Made by a program: the position numbers and the translations under genes
The notes under the pieces: generated by a model
The model's database searches: none
Told to the model about the DNA's origin: nothing
What the model saw: only the letters and a program-made list of their open reading frames with translations
In this document: in pieces, positions 3,942 to 16,249 of the stretch
How the letters are laid out: each line of letters starts with the position of its first letter
Numbering within the stretch: position 1 is the first letter of the stretch
Assembly: GCA_044220955.1 (NCBI GenBank)
Contig: JBGAQA010000105.1
Location: forward strand, 1 to 21,608
Direction of reading: 5' to 3'
DNA length: 21,608 nucleotides
Origin: Sandaracinaceae bacterium
GTDB lineage: Bacteria > Myxococcota_A > Polyangia > Polyangiales > Sandaracinaceae

Positions 3942-6689
3942 ATGGACTTGCTCACAGAGAACGTCGACCTCTCGGGCTTCGCGGGCAACTCGCTCGCGTG
4001 GATCGTCCTCTTGCCGCTGCTCGCGGCGCTCATCAACGGCAGCTTCGGCGGCCGCGCGGACAAGTGGGTCGTCACCCTCGTCTCCGTCGGCTCCGTGTTC
4101 ACGTCGTTCCTGATCGCGCTCTACGCGTTCGGCACGCTGCTGCGCGCATCGGGCACCGAGGGCGACGAGGGGCGCATCGTCCAGACGGTCTATCAGTGGT
4201 TCGCGCTGGCCATCCCCGCGGGGGACGGGGCCGTCTACAACGTTCCGATCCAGGTCCGCTTCGTCATGGATCACCTCTCCGGGATCATGACGATCATGGT
4301 CACGGGGATCGCGTCGCTCATCCACGTGTACTCGACGAGCTACATGGGTGAGGACGCGGGCTACCCGCGGTTCATGACGTACCTGAACCTGTTCACCGCC
4401 TCGATGCTCATCCTCGTGCTCGGCTCGAACGTCCCCTTGATGTTCGTCGGCTGGGAGGGCGTCGGCCTCTGCTCGTACCTGCTGATCGGCTTCTGGTGGC
4501 AGAACCCGGCGTACGCGGCGGCGGGACGCAAGGCGTTCGTCGTCAACCGCATCGGCGACTTCGGCGTGCTCATCGGCACGTTCATGCTCGTCTCGATCGC
4601 CCACAGCTTCGAGTTCGACCAGATCAACGCGGCGGCGGCCGAGATCGCGACGATGCCCTTCGTGATGGGCGGCGTGCCCTGGGGCATCCACGTCGGCACG
4701 CTCGCGGCGCTGATGCTCTTCCTCGGGTGCACCGGCAAGAGCGCGCAGCTGCCGCTCTTCGTCTGGCTGCCGGACGCGATGGCCGGCCCCACGCCGGTGT
4801 CCGCGCTCATCCACGCGGCCACGATGGTCACGGCGGGCGTCTATCTCTGCTGCCGCTTCTCGCCGATCTTCATCCACAGCACGACGGCGATGAGCGTGAT
4901 CGCGCTGGTCGGCGCGGCGACGGCCTTCGTCGCGGCCTCGATCGGCCTCGTGCAGAACCAGATGAAGAAGATCCTGGCCTACTCCACGGTCAGCCAGCTG
5001 GGCTTCATGTTCGCCGCGGTCGGCACGGGCGCGTTCGCCGCCGGCATCTTCCACGTCTTCACGCACGCGTTCTTCAAGGCCTGCCTCTTCCTCGGGGCGG
5101 GCTCGGTGATGCACGCGATCCACGCGCACGGCGACGCGGACATCCGCTACCTCGGCGGGCTCAAGAAGTACATGCCGCGGACGCGGATGACGTTCCTGCT
5201 CGCGTGCTGCGCGATCGCCGGCGTGCCGCTCTTCTCGGGCTTCTTCTCGAAGGACGAGATCCTGCTCGGCGCGCTCGAGTCCGCCGGACATCTGCCCGAG
5301 TGGGTCAGCTACACGGTGTTCGCGCTCCTCGTGATCACCGCGGGCATGACCGCCTTCTACATGTTCCGGCTCTACTTCCGGACGTTCGAGGGTGAGTTCA
5401 AGGGCGGGCATGCGCCGGCGGCCGAGGGCGACGCGCACGAGGGCGACGAGCCCCACGAGGACCCGCACGAGTCCGACGACGCCATCACCACGCCGCTGGT
5501 CATCCTCGCGGTCGGAGCCGTGCTCGTCGGCTTCCTCGGCCTGCCGCACTGGATCGTGGGCGAGCGCTTCTCGTGGTGGTCGCACTGGATGAGCGGCGAG
5601 GCGGAGCACTGGGGCCCGGTCGCGACGTGGGCCCGCTACGCGGTCGACGGAGAAGCTCACGAGGCGGCGGGCCTCGGCCCGATCGCGATGGTGCTCGGCA
5701 CCCTCGCCGGCCTCGGCGGCATCGGCCTCGCGTACCAGTGGTACTACGTCGGTGACGGCTCGGTCCCGGGTGCGCTGATGCAGCAGTGGCCGCGCCTGCA
5801 CGCGTTCCTGATGGACAAGTGGCGCGTCGACGAGCTCTACGAGACTGTCTTCCTCGGTCCGTTCAAGTGGCTCGCCGTCGTGACGGCGAACATCGATCGC
5901 ATCCTCGTCGACGGCTTGCTGACGGTGGTCCCGGGGTGGATCGCCAAGGGCCTGGGGATGATCGCGACGCGCGTCTCGACCGGCGCCATCTACGCGTACA
6001 CGACGCTCTTCGTGGTCGGCACCGCCGGCGTGATCTGGTGGTTCACCTACCCGCACACGACCGTGGTGGGCCAGGTGGACGAGGCGACCGTGGCGTGGAC
6101 CGCCGAGCGCGGCACCGGCTACACGTACCGCTGGGACTTCGACTCGGACGGAGTGCCCGACACCGAGTGGTCGGACTCACCGGCGGCCTCGCACACGTAT
6201 GGTGACGCCGACGGCTACGTCGGCCTGGTCGCGCAGGTCGAGGACGAGGAAGGCACGACCGTCAGCGAGGTCGAGATCACGCCGGGCACGCGCGTGGTCC
6301 CGCTGGAGGAGGCGGGCTTCCGACTCGCCGTCATCTCGACCGACGACGAGGCCGCCGCGGTGACCGCGCCGACGGTGCGCCTCGAGGGCTCGCACGTCGT
6401 GCTCGACACGGGCAGCGCCGACGCGCTCGTCGGCGCCGAGCGCTCGACGCCCGAGGATCACGTGTTCGAGCTGGACGCCGGCGACGTGGCGCGGATGAGC
6501 GGCGCCATCGTGCGCATCGGCGCGCGCGCGTGCGCGACGGTCGAGACCCAGAGCGCGTTCGGCAACCACTCCCACACCCGCGAGTGCGTGACCGTGCGTG
6601 TGCCCCACACGGAGATGGAGCCGATGGCCAGCGCCGACGCCGATCATCGCGTCTTCGACGCCTCTTCCCAGCCGGGAGGCTCGCGATGA
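3942..6689 (+). CDS. nuoL: NADH-quinone oxidoreductase subunit L with a ~210-aa C-terminal soluble extension
   Basis: FVGWEGVGLCSYLLIGFW, GKSAQLPLFVWLPDAMAGPTPVSALIHAATMV, KKILAYSTVSQLG and HAFFKACLF motifs. Confidence 0.97.
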   Translation: MDLLTENVDLSGFAGNSLAWIVLLPLLAALINGSFGGRADKWVVTLVSVGSVFTSFLIALYAFGTLLRASGTEGDEGRIVQTVYQWFALAIPAGDGAVYNVPIQVRFVMDHLSGIMTIMVTGIASLIHVYSTSYMGEDAGYPRFMTYLNLFTASMLILVLGSNVPLMFVGWEGVGLCSYLLIGFWWQNPAYAAAGRKAFVVNRIGDFGVLIGTFMLVSIAHSFEFDQINAAAAEIATMPFVMGGVPWGIHVGTLAALMLFLGCTGKSAQLPLFVWLPDAMAGPTPVSALIHAATMVTAGVYLCCRFSPIFIHSTTAMSVIALVGAATAFVAASIGLVQNQMKKILAYSTVSQLGFMFAAVGTGAFAAGIFHVFTHAFFKACLFLGAGSVMHAIHAHGDADIRYLGGLKKYMPRTRMTFLLACCAIAGVPLFSGFFSKDEILLGALESAGHLPEWVSYTVFALLVITAGMTAFYMFRLYFRTFEGEFKGGHAPAAEGDAHEGDEPHEDPHESDDAITTPLVILAVGAVLVGFLGLPHWIVGERFSWWSHWMSGEAEHWGPVATWARYAVDGEAHEAAGLGPIAMVLGTLAGLGGIGLAYQWYYVGDGSVPGALMQQWPRLHAFLMDKWRVDELYETVFLGPFKWLAVVTANIDRILVDGLLTVVPGWIAKGLGMIATRVSTGAIYAYTTLFVVGTAGVIWWFTYPHTTVVGQVDEATVAWTAERGTGYTYRWDFDSDGVPDTEWSDSPAASHTYGDADGYVGLVAQVEDEEGTTVSEVEITPGTRVVPLEEAGFRLAVISTDDEAAAVTAPTVRLEGSHVVLDTGSADALVGAERSTPEDHVFELDAGDVARMSGAIVRIGARACATVETQSAFGNHSHTRECVTVRVPHTEMEPMASADADHRVFDASSQPGGSR

Positions 6690-8503
6690 GCGCCCCCACG
6701 ACCACGGACGTCCCCGTCCAGCTGCCCGCGTCGCCGGAGCCGACCGCGATCGAGCGATACCGCGCCTACGTCGTCGCCGGCGTCGTCGGCGCCGCGTTCC
6801 TGCTCTTCGCCGACTACGTTCCGGCCCCCGAGCACGGGCTGCTCTCGATGCTGCTGGCCGTGCCCTTCCTCGGTGCGATCGGTGTGCTCTTCATCCCGCG
6901 CCAGTGGGTGAACGAGATCCGCAACTTCTCGATGTTCGTGATGTGCCTCGAGCTGGTGCTCTCGGGCTGGTTGCGACAGGGTGACTACACGGGCTCGACG
7001 ATGCAGTTCGCCGAGAGCGCCGAGTGGGTGCCCTCGCTCGGCATCGGGTGGCGACTCGGAGTCGACGGCATCTCGTACTGGCTCGTGCTGCTGACCACGG
7101 CGCTGACGCCCATCTCGCTCTTCGTGTCCTACAACGCGGTGAGCACGAAGGTGAAGGAGTACGCGTTCTCCTTCCTGCTGCTCGAGGTGGGGATGCTCGG
7201 AGCGTTCGTCACGCTCGACCTCTTCCTCTTCTACGTGTTCTGGGAGCTGATGCTGGTGCCGATGTACCTCATCATCGGCATCTGGGGCGGCAAGGAGCGC
7301 ATCTACGCGGCGCTCAAGTTCTTCATCTACACCTTCGTCGGCAGCCTGCTGATGCTGATCGCGATCCTGTACGTGGTCGCGCAGTACCACGAGCTCACCG
7401 GGCTCTGGTCGTTCGCCTGGACGGATCTCGCGAACCTGCAGCTCCCGCCCGGCGAGCAGATCTGGCTCTTCGTCGCGTTCGCCCTCGCGTTCGCGATCAA
7501 GGTGCCGATGTTCCCGCTGCACACGTGGCTGCCCGACGCCCACGTGCAGGCCCCGACCGGTGGCTCGGTGATCCTGGCGGCCGTGCTCCTCAAGCTCGGC
7601 GGCTACGGGTTCCTCCGCTTCGCCATGCCGCTCTTCCCGTTCGCGTCGCACTTCCTCGGGCCCTCGATCGCCGTGTTCGCGGTGGTCGGCATCCTCTACG
7701 GCGCGGTCTGCGCGTGGGTGCAGCGCGACGTGAAGAAGCTCGTCGCGTACAGCTCGGTGAGCCACCTCGGCTTCGTGATGCTGGGCATCCTCTCGGTCAC
7801 GCAGACGGGCATCTCGGGCGCCATCCTTCAGATGGTCAGCCACGGCATCTCCACCGGCGCGCTCTTCATCCTCGTCGGCGTCATCTACGACCGCCGCCAC
7901 ACGCGCGACCTCGCCGACTTCGGCGGGCTCGCGAAGGTGATGCCCGCCTACACGGTGATCTTCGTGATCGTGACGATGAGCTCGGTGGGCCTGCCCGGCA
8001 CCAACGGCTTCGTCGGGGAGTTCATGATCCTCTCGGGCTCGTTCGTCTCGAGCGAGCTGGGGAACTTCGAGGCCCGCTTCGTCTTCTTCGCCGCGATGGG
8101 CGTGATCCTCGCGGCCGTCTACATGCTGCACGCAGTGCTCAAGATGTTCTGGGGGCCGGTGGACAAGAAGGAGAACGAGGGGCTCGCGGATCTCACGCAC
8201 CGGGAGCGCATCGCGCTCGCGCCGCTCGTGGTCGCGATCTTCTGGATCGGGTTCTTCCCGAACACCCTGCTCGAGACGATGCGTCCGAGCGTCGAGCACC
8301 TCGTCTCGACGTACGTGACCGAGTACACGAGCGACCAGCACGCCGAGGGGATGGCGCTGCGGCACGCGACCGAGGAGGCGGCGCCCCCGGCGCAGGACGC
8401 GCCGGCACCCGAGGGCGCGGCCGCCGTGCTCGACGGCGCCGATGCGCGGCGCGCCGCGGCCGCTGCCGACGTCCTGGCGCTCGCCCGGGGAGGCTCGCGA
8501 TGA
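6686..8503 (+). CDS. nuoM: NADH-quinone oxidoreductase subunit M
   Basis: FYVFWELMLVPMY, AIKVPMFPLHTWLPDAHVQAP and KKLVAYSSVSHLG motifs; ATGA overlap with nuoL and GGAGG upstream. Confidence 0.96.
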   Translation: MSAPTTTDVPVQLPASPEPTAIERYRAYVVAGVVGAAFLLFADYVPAPEHGLLSMLLAVPFLGAIGVLFIPRQWVNEIRNFSMFVMCLELVLSGWLRQGDYTGSTMQFAESAEWVPSLGIGWRLGVDGISYWLVLLTTALTPISLFVSYNAVSTKVKEYAFSFLLLEVGMLGAFVTLDLFLFYVFWELMLVPMYLIIGIWGGKERIYAALKFFIYTFVGSLLMLIAILYVVAQYHELTGLWSFAWTDLANLQLPPGEQIWLFVAFALAFAIKVPMFPLHTWLPDAHVQAPTGGSVILAAVLLKLGGYGFLRFAMPLFPFASHFLGPSIAVFAVVGILYGAVCAWVQRDVKKLVAYSSVSHLGFVMLGILSVTQTGISGAILQMVSHGISTGALFILVGVIYDRRHTRDLADFGGLAKVMPAYTVIFVIVTMSSVGLPGTNGFVGEFMILSGSFVSSELGNFEARFVFFAAMGVILAAVYMLHAVLKMFWGPVDKKENEGLADLTHRERIALAPLVVAIFWIGFFPNTLLETMRPSVEHLVSTYVTEYTSDQHAEGMALRHATEEAAPPAQDAPAPEGAAAVLDGADARRAAAAADVLALARGGSR

Positions 8504-8532
8504 ACAACTGCCTAAAGGCTGGTGGGCGATGA
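8500..8532 (+). CDS. Micro-ORF MNNCLKAGGR* coupled at both ends (cassette copy 1)
   Basis: ATG 8500 overlaps the nuoM TGA; TGA 8530-8532 overlaps the nuoN ATG 8529; GGAGG at 8489-8493; near-identical to 15527-15556. Translation is inferred, not shown. Confidence 0.65.
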   Translation: MNNCLKAGGR

Positions 8533-10034
8533 TCTCCGACTACCTCGGCGCCCTCGCGTCTCTCGCGCCGCTGCTCTGGGTGGCCGGAGCGGGCCTGGTG
8601 ATGATGCTCGTCGACGCGCTCGTGAAGGAGCGCGCGCACCTCGGGCTGATGACCTTCTTCATCCTGCTCGTCGGCTGCGGGCTCTCGCTCGCGCTCTGGG
8701 ACGACCCCCCGTCCGAGCAGCTCACGCTGGGCGGCTACCTCGCGCTCGACCGGCTCGCGCTCTTCATCGACGTCACCGTCTGCGGCGGCGGCGCGCTCGC
8801 GGCGCTCCTGGCCGGCGGCTACCTCAACGAGCACGGCCTCGAGCGTGGCGAGTTCTACCTCGTGCTGCTCTTCTCGGTGTTCGGCGCGATGGTCCTCGGC
8901 CGGGCCTCGGACCTGCTGACGCTCTTCGTCGCGCTCGAGACGCTCTCGCTCGGCGTGTACGGCCTGGTCGCGTTCCGGCGCCACAGCCCGCGCGCCGCGG
9001 AGGGCGCGATGAAGTACTTCCTTCTCGGCTCGTTCGCCTCGGCGATCCTGCTCTTCGGCTCGGCGCTGCTCTACGGCGCGACGGGGGCGACGAGCTTCGA
9101 GGCCATCGGCGCCTCGCTCGAGGGCGGTGACGCAGACCTGCGTCTGACGATCCTGGGCATGGCGCTGATCCTGATCGGCCTCGCTTTCAAGGTCAGCGCG
9201 GTGCCCTTCCACCAGTGGACGCCGGACGCCTACGAGGGCGCGGTCACGCCGGCGACCAGCTTCATGGCCGTGGTGGTCAAGTCGGCGGTGTTCGCGATCA
9301 TCATCCGCGTCTTCGTCGTGCTCTTCGGCACCGAGACGTTCACGACGACGGGCTCGGGCTGGCTCCCGGCGGTCGCGGGCCTGGCGGCCGTCACGATGGT
9401 CGTCGGCAACGTCGCCGCGCTCTCGCAGAAGAACGTGAAGCGGATGCTCGCGTACTCCTCGATCGCCCACGGCGGCTTCATCCTGATCGGCGTGGTCGCC
9501 GCGGGTCTCGCGCGCGGCACGAGCCAGGAGGCCGCCGCCCAGGCCCTCTCGTCGGTGCTCTACTACCTGCTCGCGTACACCGCATCGAACATCCTGGCCT
9601 TCGGCGCGCTCATCTGGGCGGGCAGCAAGGGCAAGGAGGCCGTCACGTACGACGACCTCGCAGGGCTCGGGCGCCGCCACCCCGTCGTGGCCCTGCCCTT
9701 CACCCTCGGCATCCTCTCGCTGATGGGCTTCCCCCCGACGGCCGGCTTCTTCGCGAAGTACGCCATCCTGGCGGCGGCCGTCTCGCAGGGTGGCGGGATG
9801 ATCTGGCTCGCCATCCTCGGCGTGCTCTCGAGCGCCGTGGGCGCGTACTACTACCTGCGCGTCCTGGTGTACCTCTTCATGAAGCAGCCGGAGAACGGCG
9901 CGGCGGTCGCGGTGCCGATGCGCTCGTTCTACGTGGTGAGCGCGCTCGTGCTCTCGAGCTACTTCGTGATCCGCATGGGCCTGGCCCCGACGCACTACCT
10001 CGAGCTCGCGCTCGCGGCCGCACAGCTCTCCTGA
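8529..10034 (+). CDS. nuoN: NADH-quinone oxidoreductase subunit N
   Basis: EGAMKYFLLGSFAS, FKVSAVPFHQWTPDAYEGA, KRMLAYSSIAHGG and GFPPTAGFFAK motifs. Confidence 0.96.
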   Translation: MISDYLGALASLAPLLWVAGAGLVMMLVDALVKERAHLGLMTFFILLVGCGLSLALWDDPPSEQLTLGGYLALDRLALFIDVTVCGGGALAALLAGGYLNEHGLERGEFYLVLLFSVFGAMVLGRASDLLTLFVALETLSLGVYGLVAFRRHSPRAAEGAMKYFLLGSFASAILLFGSALLYGATGATSFEAIGASLEGGDADLRLTILGMALILIGLAFKVSAVPFHQWTPDAYEGAVTPATSFMAVVVKSAVFAIIIRVFVVLFGTETFTTTGSGWLPAVAGLAAVTMVVGNVAALSQKNVKRMLAYSSIAHGGFILIGVVAAGLARGTSQEAAAQALSSVLYYLLAYTASNILAFGALIWAGSKGKEAVTYDDLAGLGRRHPVVALPFTLGILSLMGFPPTAGFFAKYAILAAAVSQGGGMIWLAILGVLSSAVGAYYYLRVLVYLFMKQPENGAAVAVPMRSFYVVSALVLSSYFVIRMGLAPTHYLELALAAAQLS

Positions 10035-14798: not shown

Positions 14799-15530
14799 AT
14801 GGCCGAGACGCTCAAGCACAAGCGGGTGATGCTCAAGCTCTCCGGCGAGGCGCTCGCCGGAGCCGACGGCGCCTTCGGGATCGATCCCGCGACGCTGCTC
14901 GTGCTGGCCACCGAGGTGGCCGAGGCGCACGCGCTCGGCGCGGAGTGCGGCGTCGTGATCGGCGGCGGCAACATCTTCCGCGGCCTCAAGGGCCACGGGC
15001 AGGGGATGGATCGCTCGACGGCCGACTACATGGGCATGCTCGCGACGGTGATCAACGCGCTCGCGCTGCAGGACACGCTCGAGCGGCTGAAGGTCGACAC
15101 GCGCGTGGTCTCTGCGCTCGACATCCGACAGGTCGCCGAGCCCTACATCCGCCGGCGCGCCGTGCGGCACCTCGAGAAGGGCCGCGTGGTCATCTTCGCC
15201 GCGGGCACGGGAAACCCGTTCTTCTCGACGGACACCGCGGCCGCGCTCCGCTCGATGGAGATCGGCGCGTCGCTCCTCTGCAAGGCGACCAACGTCGAGG
15301 GCGTCTACGACAAGGACCCCAAGAAGCACCCCGACGCGGTGATGTACCGGCGGCTCGACTACGATCGGTGCCTCAGCGACCGCATCGGCGTGATGGACTC
15401 GACCGCCATCACGCTCTGTCGCGAGAACAGGCTCCCCATCCGCGTGTTCGCGCTGCTCAAGCGCGGCAACATCAAGCGCGTGCTGCTCGGCGAGGACGTC
15501 GGGACGCTGGTGTCCGAGGAGAAATCATGA
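14799..15530 (+). CDS. pyrH: Uridylate kinase
   Basis: [40 protein letters not shown] and VMDSTA motifs. Confidence 0.97.
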
Positions 15531-15556
15531 ATTGCCTGAAGGCTGGTGGGCCATGA
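15527..15556 (+). CDS. Micro-[12 protein letters not shown] coupled at both ends (cassette copy 2)
   Basis: ATG 15527 overlaps the pyrH TGA; TGA 15554-15556 overlaps the frr ATG 15553; GAGGAG just upstream; near-identical to 8500-8532. Translation is inferred, not shown. Confidence 0.65.
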
Positions 15557-16110
15557 TCCAAGAAACGCTCGACGAGTTGAAGGGGAGCATCGGCAAGGCG
15601 CACGAGGCGCTCAAGCGCGAGCTCTCACGCCTGCGCACCGGGCGCGCGTCCCCCGAGCTGCTCGACTCGATCCGGGTCGACTACTACGGCACGTCGACGC
15701 CGGTGACGCAGATGGCGAGCGTCTCGGTGCCGGAGCCGCGCCTCCTGGTCATCAAGCCGTTCGACGCGGGGATGATCAAGCAGATCGAGCAGACGATCCT
15801 GCAGTCGCCGCTCGGGCTCACGCCGCAGAACGACGGCAAGATCATCCGGCTGCCGATGCCGCCGCTCACCGAGCAGCGGCGCAAGGAGCTCGCCAAGGTC
15901 GCCAAGGGCCACGGCGAGGACTGCAAGGTCGCGATCCGCAAGGCGCGCCACGAGTGCCGCGACATGCTGGCCGAGATCGAGAAGGACGGCGGGGCCAGCG
16001 CCGACGAGGTCGACCGCGCGAAGAAGGCGATGGAGGACATCGTGAAAGAGGGCACCGACCGGTCGGACGAGCTCGTCGCCCACAAGGAAAAGGACATCCT
16101 CTCGCTCTAG
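15553..16110 (+). CDS. frr: Ribosome recycling factor
   Basis: LRTGRASP, IRVDYYG, LGLTPQNDG and PPLTEQRRKEL motifs; canonical position after pyrH. Confidence 0.97.
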   Translation: MIQETLDELKGSIGKAHEALKRELSRLRTGRASPELLDSIRVDYYGTSTPVTQMASVSVPEPRLLVIKPFDAGMIKQIEQTILQSPLGLTPQNDGKIIRLPMPPLTEQRRKELAKVAKGHGEDCKVAIRKARHECRDMLAEIEKDGGASADEVDRAKKAMEDIVKEGTDRSDELVAHKEKDILSL

Positions 16111-16125
16111 TGTCCGGGGCTCGCG

Positions 16126-16215
16126 CCCCTCACCCAGCCCTCTCGCCGCGAGCGGGGAGAGGGCTTCGAGCTCGGTTCCCTCTCCCACCTCGTGGGAGAG
16201 GGCTAGGGTGAGGGC
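16126..16215. repeat. BoxC-like nested palindromic extragenic repeat
   Basis: Outer inverted repeat ccctcacccagccctctc / gagagggctagggtgaggg enclosing two hairpins, gccctctcgccgc...ggagagggc and ccctctcccac-ctc-gtgggagaggg. Confidence 0.7.
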
Positions 16216-16249
16216 GACGCGCCACCGATCGACCCAGGGACCGCCATCC

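Follow-up and report, generated by a model that had tools for sequence, protein, structure and literature searches.

The window analysed here, a 21,608-nucleotide stretch of DNA from a Sandaracinaceae bacterium (assembly GCA_044220955.1, contig JBGAQA010000105.1), carries pyrH followed by frr, with an insert of 26 bases between them (Table 1); the identities of these two genes and of nuoN were confirmed by family matches. The preliminary description of this DNA had read the 30 bases at 15527–15556 as an ATG on the pyrH stop, nine codons and a TGA on the frr start, and this is what the sequence holds: the ATG at 15527 overlaps the pyrH TGA (15528–15530), and the TGA (15554–15556) of the mini-ORF thus opened, MNCLKAGGP, overlaps the frr ATG at 15553. 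Deleting 15531–15556 yields GAGGAGAAATC-ATGA-TCCAA, the junction that had been reconstructed, and the short direct repeats that had been pointed out are in place, CATGA at both ends of the frr insert and GCGATGA around the other copy in the window, at nuoN.

Table 1. Features of the pyrH–frr junction and the second copy of the element, in window positions.
Feature	Position	Strand	Remarks
Second copy, at nuoM/nuoN, mini-ORF MNNCLKAGGR*	8500..8532	+	29-nt insertion, core 8506–8525, GCGATGA duplicated
pyrH (UMP kinase), upstream host gene	14799..15530	+	TIGR02075
GAGGAG Shine-Dalgarno, 5 nt upstream of first ATG	15516..15521	+	−8.7 kcal/mol with the 16S tail of this genome
Duplicated target CATGA, left copy	15526..15530	+	
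Relay mini-ORF	15527..15556	+	start on pyrH stop, stop on frr start; putatively translated
Conserved 20-nt core of the element, AATTGCCTGAAGGCTGGTGG	15530..15549	+	3 differences from the commonest form
Anti-SD-pairing stretch within the insert, ahead of frr ATG, AAGGCTGGTG	15539..15548	+	−12.2 kcal/mol with a bulge
Duplicated target CATGA, right copy, containing the frr start codon	15552..15556	+	
frr (ribosome recycling factor), downstream host gene	15553..16110	+	TIGR00496

The GAGGAG ahead of the first ATG would be the original frr ribosome-binding site. The frr copy forms no stable RNA structure (fold z −0.54 to 0.34 against shuffles), and a known RNA family was rejected on 0 matches to Rfam in the window. 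Directly 3′ of the frr stop lies a 92-nt near-perfect hairpin (window 16125–16216, z −8.1), which with 58 BLAST lines across this genome represents a second, REP-like repeat family; at the same frr/next-gene junction the congener G004 has, in place of the hairpin, a copy of the 26-nt element after the frr stop. An 18-mer common to the two window copies occurs twice, against 0.00 expected from 100 shuffles, and the nuoL/nuoM ATGA overlap, which had been described as free of an insert, was indeed found so at 6686. Among the congeners compared (G001–G005), the nuoN junction is filled in G004 as it is here, each copy duplicating its own flank, and is without the element in G001, G002, G003 and G005. 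The nuoK start (window 3630) is empty here and filled in G004, and four junctions of this 21-kb region (nuoK, nuoN, frr and the gene after frr) are filled in one member of the genus or another. A low-GC3 tandem stretch (PAYGA..PAYGG) at the nuoM end in G003 (L289, G003:C441), just before nuoN, is loosely core-like; it belongs to no repeat family and was rejected as a member.

An assembly error as the origin of the insert can be ruled out, given that a contig from run X2, a run of another study, covers 15378–15958 with 0 differences; a second contig of that run covers 7988–9212, with the nuoN copy, without gaps. A contig from run X10 is also identical over the frr copy, and was not counted as a bridge because it has fewer than 31 letters left of the insert. 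This comparison took in 4 of the 22 listed runs, as contigs and leaving out the likely source run. An empty pyrH–frr allele was found neither in relatives nor among the contigs listed from the four runs, contigs being prone to drop rare variants; the four congeners with this locus have junctions that differ from the one here, and the empty allele is a reconstruction only. In the single RNA run, 0.05 of the words were present and none of the contigs listed covers the site. At the G005 locus (L341), 13 nt spanning the pyrH stop codon are duplicated in tandem.

The insert is one copy of a very small mobile repeat, apparently undescribed, of one uncultured myxobacterial genus. We scanned the genome to which the window belongs (7.5 Mb, 72.5% GC, 88% complete) by mismatch and with a matrix trained on the sites found, which gave about 11 copies of a 20-nt core, AATTGCCTGAAGGCCTGTCG, each with a start-codon duplication of 3–10 bp, for a net length of 23–35 nt. 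In all 11, AGGC lies 8–9 nt from the ATG of a long frame. With an independent matrix, built from the copies of other genomes, 9 of the 10 best matches in this genome fall at long-frame starts, and above 7 bits a start is found at 15/269 matches against 0/328 in the reversed genome; the frr core is the third-best match, at 28.5 bits. Searching with the 20-mer at up to three mismatches returned 1, 1, 13, 29 and 1 matches in G001 to G005 respectively, and 0 in controls, and a strict pattern, which misses the diverged copies of the present genome, occurs in 5/5 congeners and 0/295 other genomes of the order. The 26 other genomes of the family gave five three-mismatch matches, in four genomes and none at a start (G046, for instance, had no match). 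In a species collection, 12 of 23 matches show the architecture, in records labelled Sandaracinaceae, Polyangiales or Deltaproteobacteria, while the 11 in other taxa miss it and were set aside as chance; of the metagenome matches, 15 of 25 were kept and 10 dropped by GC and context, since they lie in other taxa, low-GC or coding contexts and were likewise taken as chance. Five matches from unrelated bacteria (L102, L123, L135, L137 and L139) fall within a gene that reads CxxCxNCLKACR, which resembles the cysteine motifs of iron-sulfur proteins, and these too were taken as chance. A literature search, made mostly without subscription papers, returned no paper on this repeat. Its host genes include nuoN, nuoK, rpsH, rplN, atpH, purS, coaD, pfkA, gspD, gspF, pilB, a thiolase and a helicase. 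The sites appear clustered (19/54 within 10 kb against 6.1 ± 3.2), which is only suggestive because the uniform null ignores core-genome bias.

Site anatomy was tabulated for 61 sites (50 from other DNA and 11 from this genome, after five duplicate, inverted or contig-edge rows were dropped), and in 58 the core is followed by 0–3 letters and then a start codon. Since an ATG had partly guided the choice of copies in this genome, a fair count comes from the congener matches, unselected for ATG, of which 40/45 run up to the start codon of a frame at least 60 codons long; of the five exceptions, two together make up an inverted duplication where an Hsp70-like gene starts, one leads a tandem pair, one is a coding copy and another sits at a contig edge. 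Copies always lie in the sense of the host gene, GAAGGC in the core is strongly conserved, and the distance to the start is fixed. A small palindrome in the core, GCC-TGAA-GGC, could form a stem of 3–4 bp only and lacks compensatory changes. By crude gene calling, 1169 ATGA and 3226 GTGA in this genome lie outside every called frame, and start codons are therefore chosen or kept as sites; ATGA microhomology alone does not account for the avoidance of intergenic ATGA. The left RTGA doubles as the stop of the upstream gene in 24/46 sites. Host starts favour ATG over GTG (41/46 sites against 345/738 background overlaps) and have A at +5 more often (19/56 against 82/738). The suggestion that ATGATC is the preferred insertion target did not hold, as it occurs at 3/56 host starts and 16/738 background overlaps (p 0.14); the target is RTGA, mostly ATGA.

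That the element arrives by insertion with a short target duplication at the start codon, as first proposed, is supported by orthologous empty junctions and by flank matching. Usable orthologues in this genome exist for 47 of the 51 host genes found in other DNA, and of their junctions here 4 are filled, 2 decayed and 41 below threshold, about four of these 41 ‘empty’ junctions looking like decayed copies by eye. Filled and empty junctions differ by the block only, with matching flanks, at atpF/atpH, L051, L053, L104, L208 and L211. The helicase copy of this genome is missing in five congeners, the difference from G004 being 29 nt with ATGACC repeated, and the thiolase copy is missing in 4/4. 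At the 37 sites left after tandem and orthologous ones were dropped, 65/124 letters beyond RTGA match between the two flanks and count as target-derived, compared with 45.0 ± 4.2 after permutation (0/10000 permutations reach 65); within offset classes, the values for the two sides were reached by 158 and 51 of 10000 permutations. Exact duplications at these sites span 3 to 10 bp and are centred on (R)TGA. The remaining letters at the junctions (TC, GCC, CCC) turn up again at unrelated sites and seem to come from the donor. At five sites the element is present in tandem units. One 27-nt copy lies in frame inside a CheA-like gene (L200 around 1500, G004:C80), where it adds KLPEGLSAE-type residues in a loop; it sits at a longer match to the left end of the element and is missing in the shorter G000 orthologue. 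In another G004 contig (L038 1450–1545, G004:C30) the element together with the opening 13 nt of an Hsp70-like gene forms a fold-back (inverted) duplication, which we regard as a strain event or an assembly artefact because metagenome contig L145 is single-copy at that site.

These distributions bear on whether the repeat could be the binding site of a regulator, protein or small RNA, that overlaps the ribosome-binding sites of a regulon. The fixed distance to the start, the strong conservation of GAAGGC and the many housekeeping hosts would suit such a site; against it, sharing is limited to 4 of the 47 orthologous junctions and a few that are decayed, and the copy numbers of the congeners span 1 to 29; moreover, a new site comes about when a block is inserted and not by base substitution, one copy lies within coding sequence, and 16S rRNA has no complement beyond ordinary SD pairing. 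We regard a regulator site as quite improbable. Altered anti-SD or rRNA pairing was also rejected, the 16S tail being ordinary and showing no consistent complement.

At 46 sites a left start is present, and the distance from it to the host start decides what is read. The relay frame that the insert had been said to form, a short frame ending in a TGA that overlaps the host start, is confirmed in the sequence at frr and recurs across the family in 40 of the 46; the other six give an in-frame extension and none uses the third frame. A distance of 26 (28 sites), 29 (8), 32 (2), 23 or 35 leads to the relay frame, one of 27 (4 sites) or 30 (2) to an in-frame fusion, and none is 1 modulo 3, these lengths not being independent because 26 is inherited, and only six other length classes were seen. 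All 40 relay ORFs are open and overlap the host start at −4, the first ATG reading 9–10 codons into the TGA on the host start (mostly at net lengths 26 or 29). They read the core as ..LPEG.. in 23/40 and as ..CLKA.. in 17/40, and a conserved peptide was rejected on account of these two frames. The core is never read in its TGA-bearing frame in the 40, against 0.55 internal stops expected, a number that leaves no power to detect selection against internal stops. The old SD remains ahead of the first ATG (median −7.15 kcal/mol), with a further, weak one contributed by the core (median −4.1, all copies); TGGTGG is found in only the two window copies of the 61, whose anti-SD pairing is −11 to −12 kcal/mol. 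Since translational coupling is established, ribosomes probably use the relay frame.

A more specific role had been proposed for the frr copy, namely that a GGP-stop relay directly before frr gauges recycling capacity and adjusts the synthesis of RRF, which might represent local co-option of the element. The geometry does permit reinitiation, Pro precedes the stop of the frr mini-ORF, and the two CATGA copies can pair with each other across the frr start in a weak hairpin (−10.3 kcal/mol). That hairpin, however, is no better than shuffles (z −0.54), and the pairing of the insert with the anti-SD means that frr need not depend on the relay. Comparison of pyrH–frr junctions, as the preliminary description had advised, drew on 30 loci from 40 matches and 29 relatives, and 29/29 lack the element before frr, including the four congeners with the locus. 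Neither the peptide nor its Pro is conserved, the codon before the relay stop being Pro in 11/40 and Ser in 20/40. In addition, a review (PMC12548453) reports four studies in which coupling was unaffected by depletion of RRF. The feedback reading thus fails because relatives lack the element, its hosts are unrelated, two peptide frames are used, ATGATC is not preferred and coupling reportedly withstands RRF depletion; we do not read the copy at frr as a device dedicated to sensing ribosome recycling, its site there is incidental, nothing points to a local effect on frr, and even a local co-option strikes us as highly improbable.

We also sought a source of mobility. Searches for reverse transcriptase, small GIY-YIG, Y1 transposase and DUF559 genes found no mobilising enzyme. 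Reverse transcriptase PF00078 is absent from the two highest-copy genomes, G003 and G004, and no short GIY-YIG frame exists in the six genus genomes, where all PF01541 matches lie in frames of at least 279 aa. Seven reverse transcriptase matches of identical score in G005 suggest an active multicopy retroelement in that genome. Y1 transposase genes are present in 6/6 genus genomes, and at the 12 of 21 Y1 loci scanned no copy adjoins, the best score being 10.7 bits at a non-start position. Neither Y1 transposases nor DUF559 genes track the element, and both were rejected as partners. A phage origin was rejected too, since neither of two patterns matched viral contigs (0 matches). Because the assemblies are 81–97% complete, an autonomous partner may be missing from them.

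The last point, together with the target duplication, leaves room for the repeat to be a relic, whether scar or solo end, of some larger mobile element (transposon, integrative or GIY-YIG-carrying) that entered at start codons and on leaving kept behind 20 nt and a target duplication, as assemblies of such completeness can lose multicopy elements. Searches with the left and right halves in five congeners and this genome, however, returned whole copies or chance matches and no half at a mobile gene, none was present in viral contigs, and copying suits the tandem units and the unequal lengths of the duplications better than excision does. A scar therefore seems unlikely to us, if less so than a regulator site.

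The reading that we consider likely is that of a MIRU-type selfish non-coding micro-element of one Sandaracinaceae genus, tolerated as translation passes through it and spread by copy-in. Ribosomes that end pyrH, or that start at the old SD, would translate the relay frame and then reinitiate at frr, with the SD-like GAAGG of the core as an aid; frr output would then change little, and the insert would be tolerated. Spread by copy-in from existing copies is the least certain part: a nicked or nascent 3′ end at the start region might switch template at ATGA microhomology, copy the core and return, possibly assisted by a trans-acting nuclease, and such copying and return would leave variable, patchwork junctions. 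We infer template-switch or strand-invasion copying from the variable duplication length, the mixed junction letters, the tandem units, the coding insertion at a left-end match and the G004 fold-back. A bolder form of this is conceivable and more doubtful, in which the 20-bp sequence is the whole replicator, with no dedicated enzyme, switching template on Shine-Dalgarno-plus-ATGA microhomology and of a length and frame invisible to translation. If true, hardly any selfish element of bacteria would be smaller, and the movement of MIRUs would have a model. To our knowledge, the route by which MIRU-type repeats reach start codons is not established. The polymorphism between species and some 60 junctions with empty partners make target choice, duplication length and frame constraint measurable here. 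For annotation, inserts of this type give rise to spurious uORFs and to N-terminal extensions of core genes (frr, rpsH, atpH), and they should not be taken for gene-specific regulation.

Among known systems, arrest leaders of the TnaC type are short ORFs that end in Pro-stop ahead of a gene. The frr mini-ORF resembles them in being short, in its Pro-stop and in lying ahead of a gene, but the peptide, frame and position of the element are unconserved and no host gene is linked to a peptide. With MITEs, as portrayed in PMC3184786, the element has in common that it is non-autonomous, without coding capacity and accompanied by a target duplication. It differs in that its core has no terminal inverted repeats (it begins AATT.. 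and ends ..GTCG, and pairing is confined to the palindromic CATG of the target), in having no long stem-loop (z −0.54), in being far shorter and in that no cognate transposase was found in these incomplete genomes by half-site searches or, at family level, among Y1 transposases. REP/RAYT repeats and the Ssn NTS/SRM hairpins are likewise dispersed repeats of 20–65 nt with a small palindrome (PMC3184786 and PMC11893778), whereas the present element is strictly oriented at start codons and has a target duplication. Unlike the Ssn system as outlined in PMC11893778, no small single-domain GIY-YIG gene is flanked by the element and, unlike REP/RAYT, no Y1 transposase adjoins it at the 12 loci scanned.

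The element and MIRUs have tandem arrays in common, those of MIRUs being the MIRU-VNTR. MIRUs are described as mobile repeats that insert at start codons and whose own ORF is coupled at −4 (PMC12548453), with a length of 40–100 bp, 40–50 copies per genome and tetranucleotide repeats at filled sites (PMC3184786). Both are dispersed repeats at start codons within operons, those of the present element lying between co-oriented genes, and both have a small ORF at −4 to the host gene. In each case filled sites carry short direct repeats, orthologous sites occur empty, and host expression would stay nearly intact. By the same accounts, the Sandaracinaceae element is much smaller, at 23–35 nt net with a 20-nt core against about 40–100 bp and about half the size of the shortest MIRU, and occurs in 1 to about 30 copies compared with 40–50. 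Moreover, its host is a Sandaracinaceae genus and not a mycobacterial one, its duplication varies from 3 to 10 bp, and it uses two relay frames as well as in-frame fusions. With length and host outside MIRU membership, and with the likeness drawn from architecture and not from sequence comparison, the repeat is best described as a putative new, very small element of the MIRU kind.
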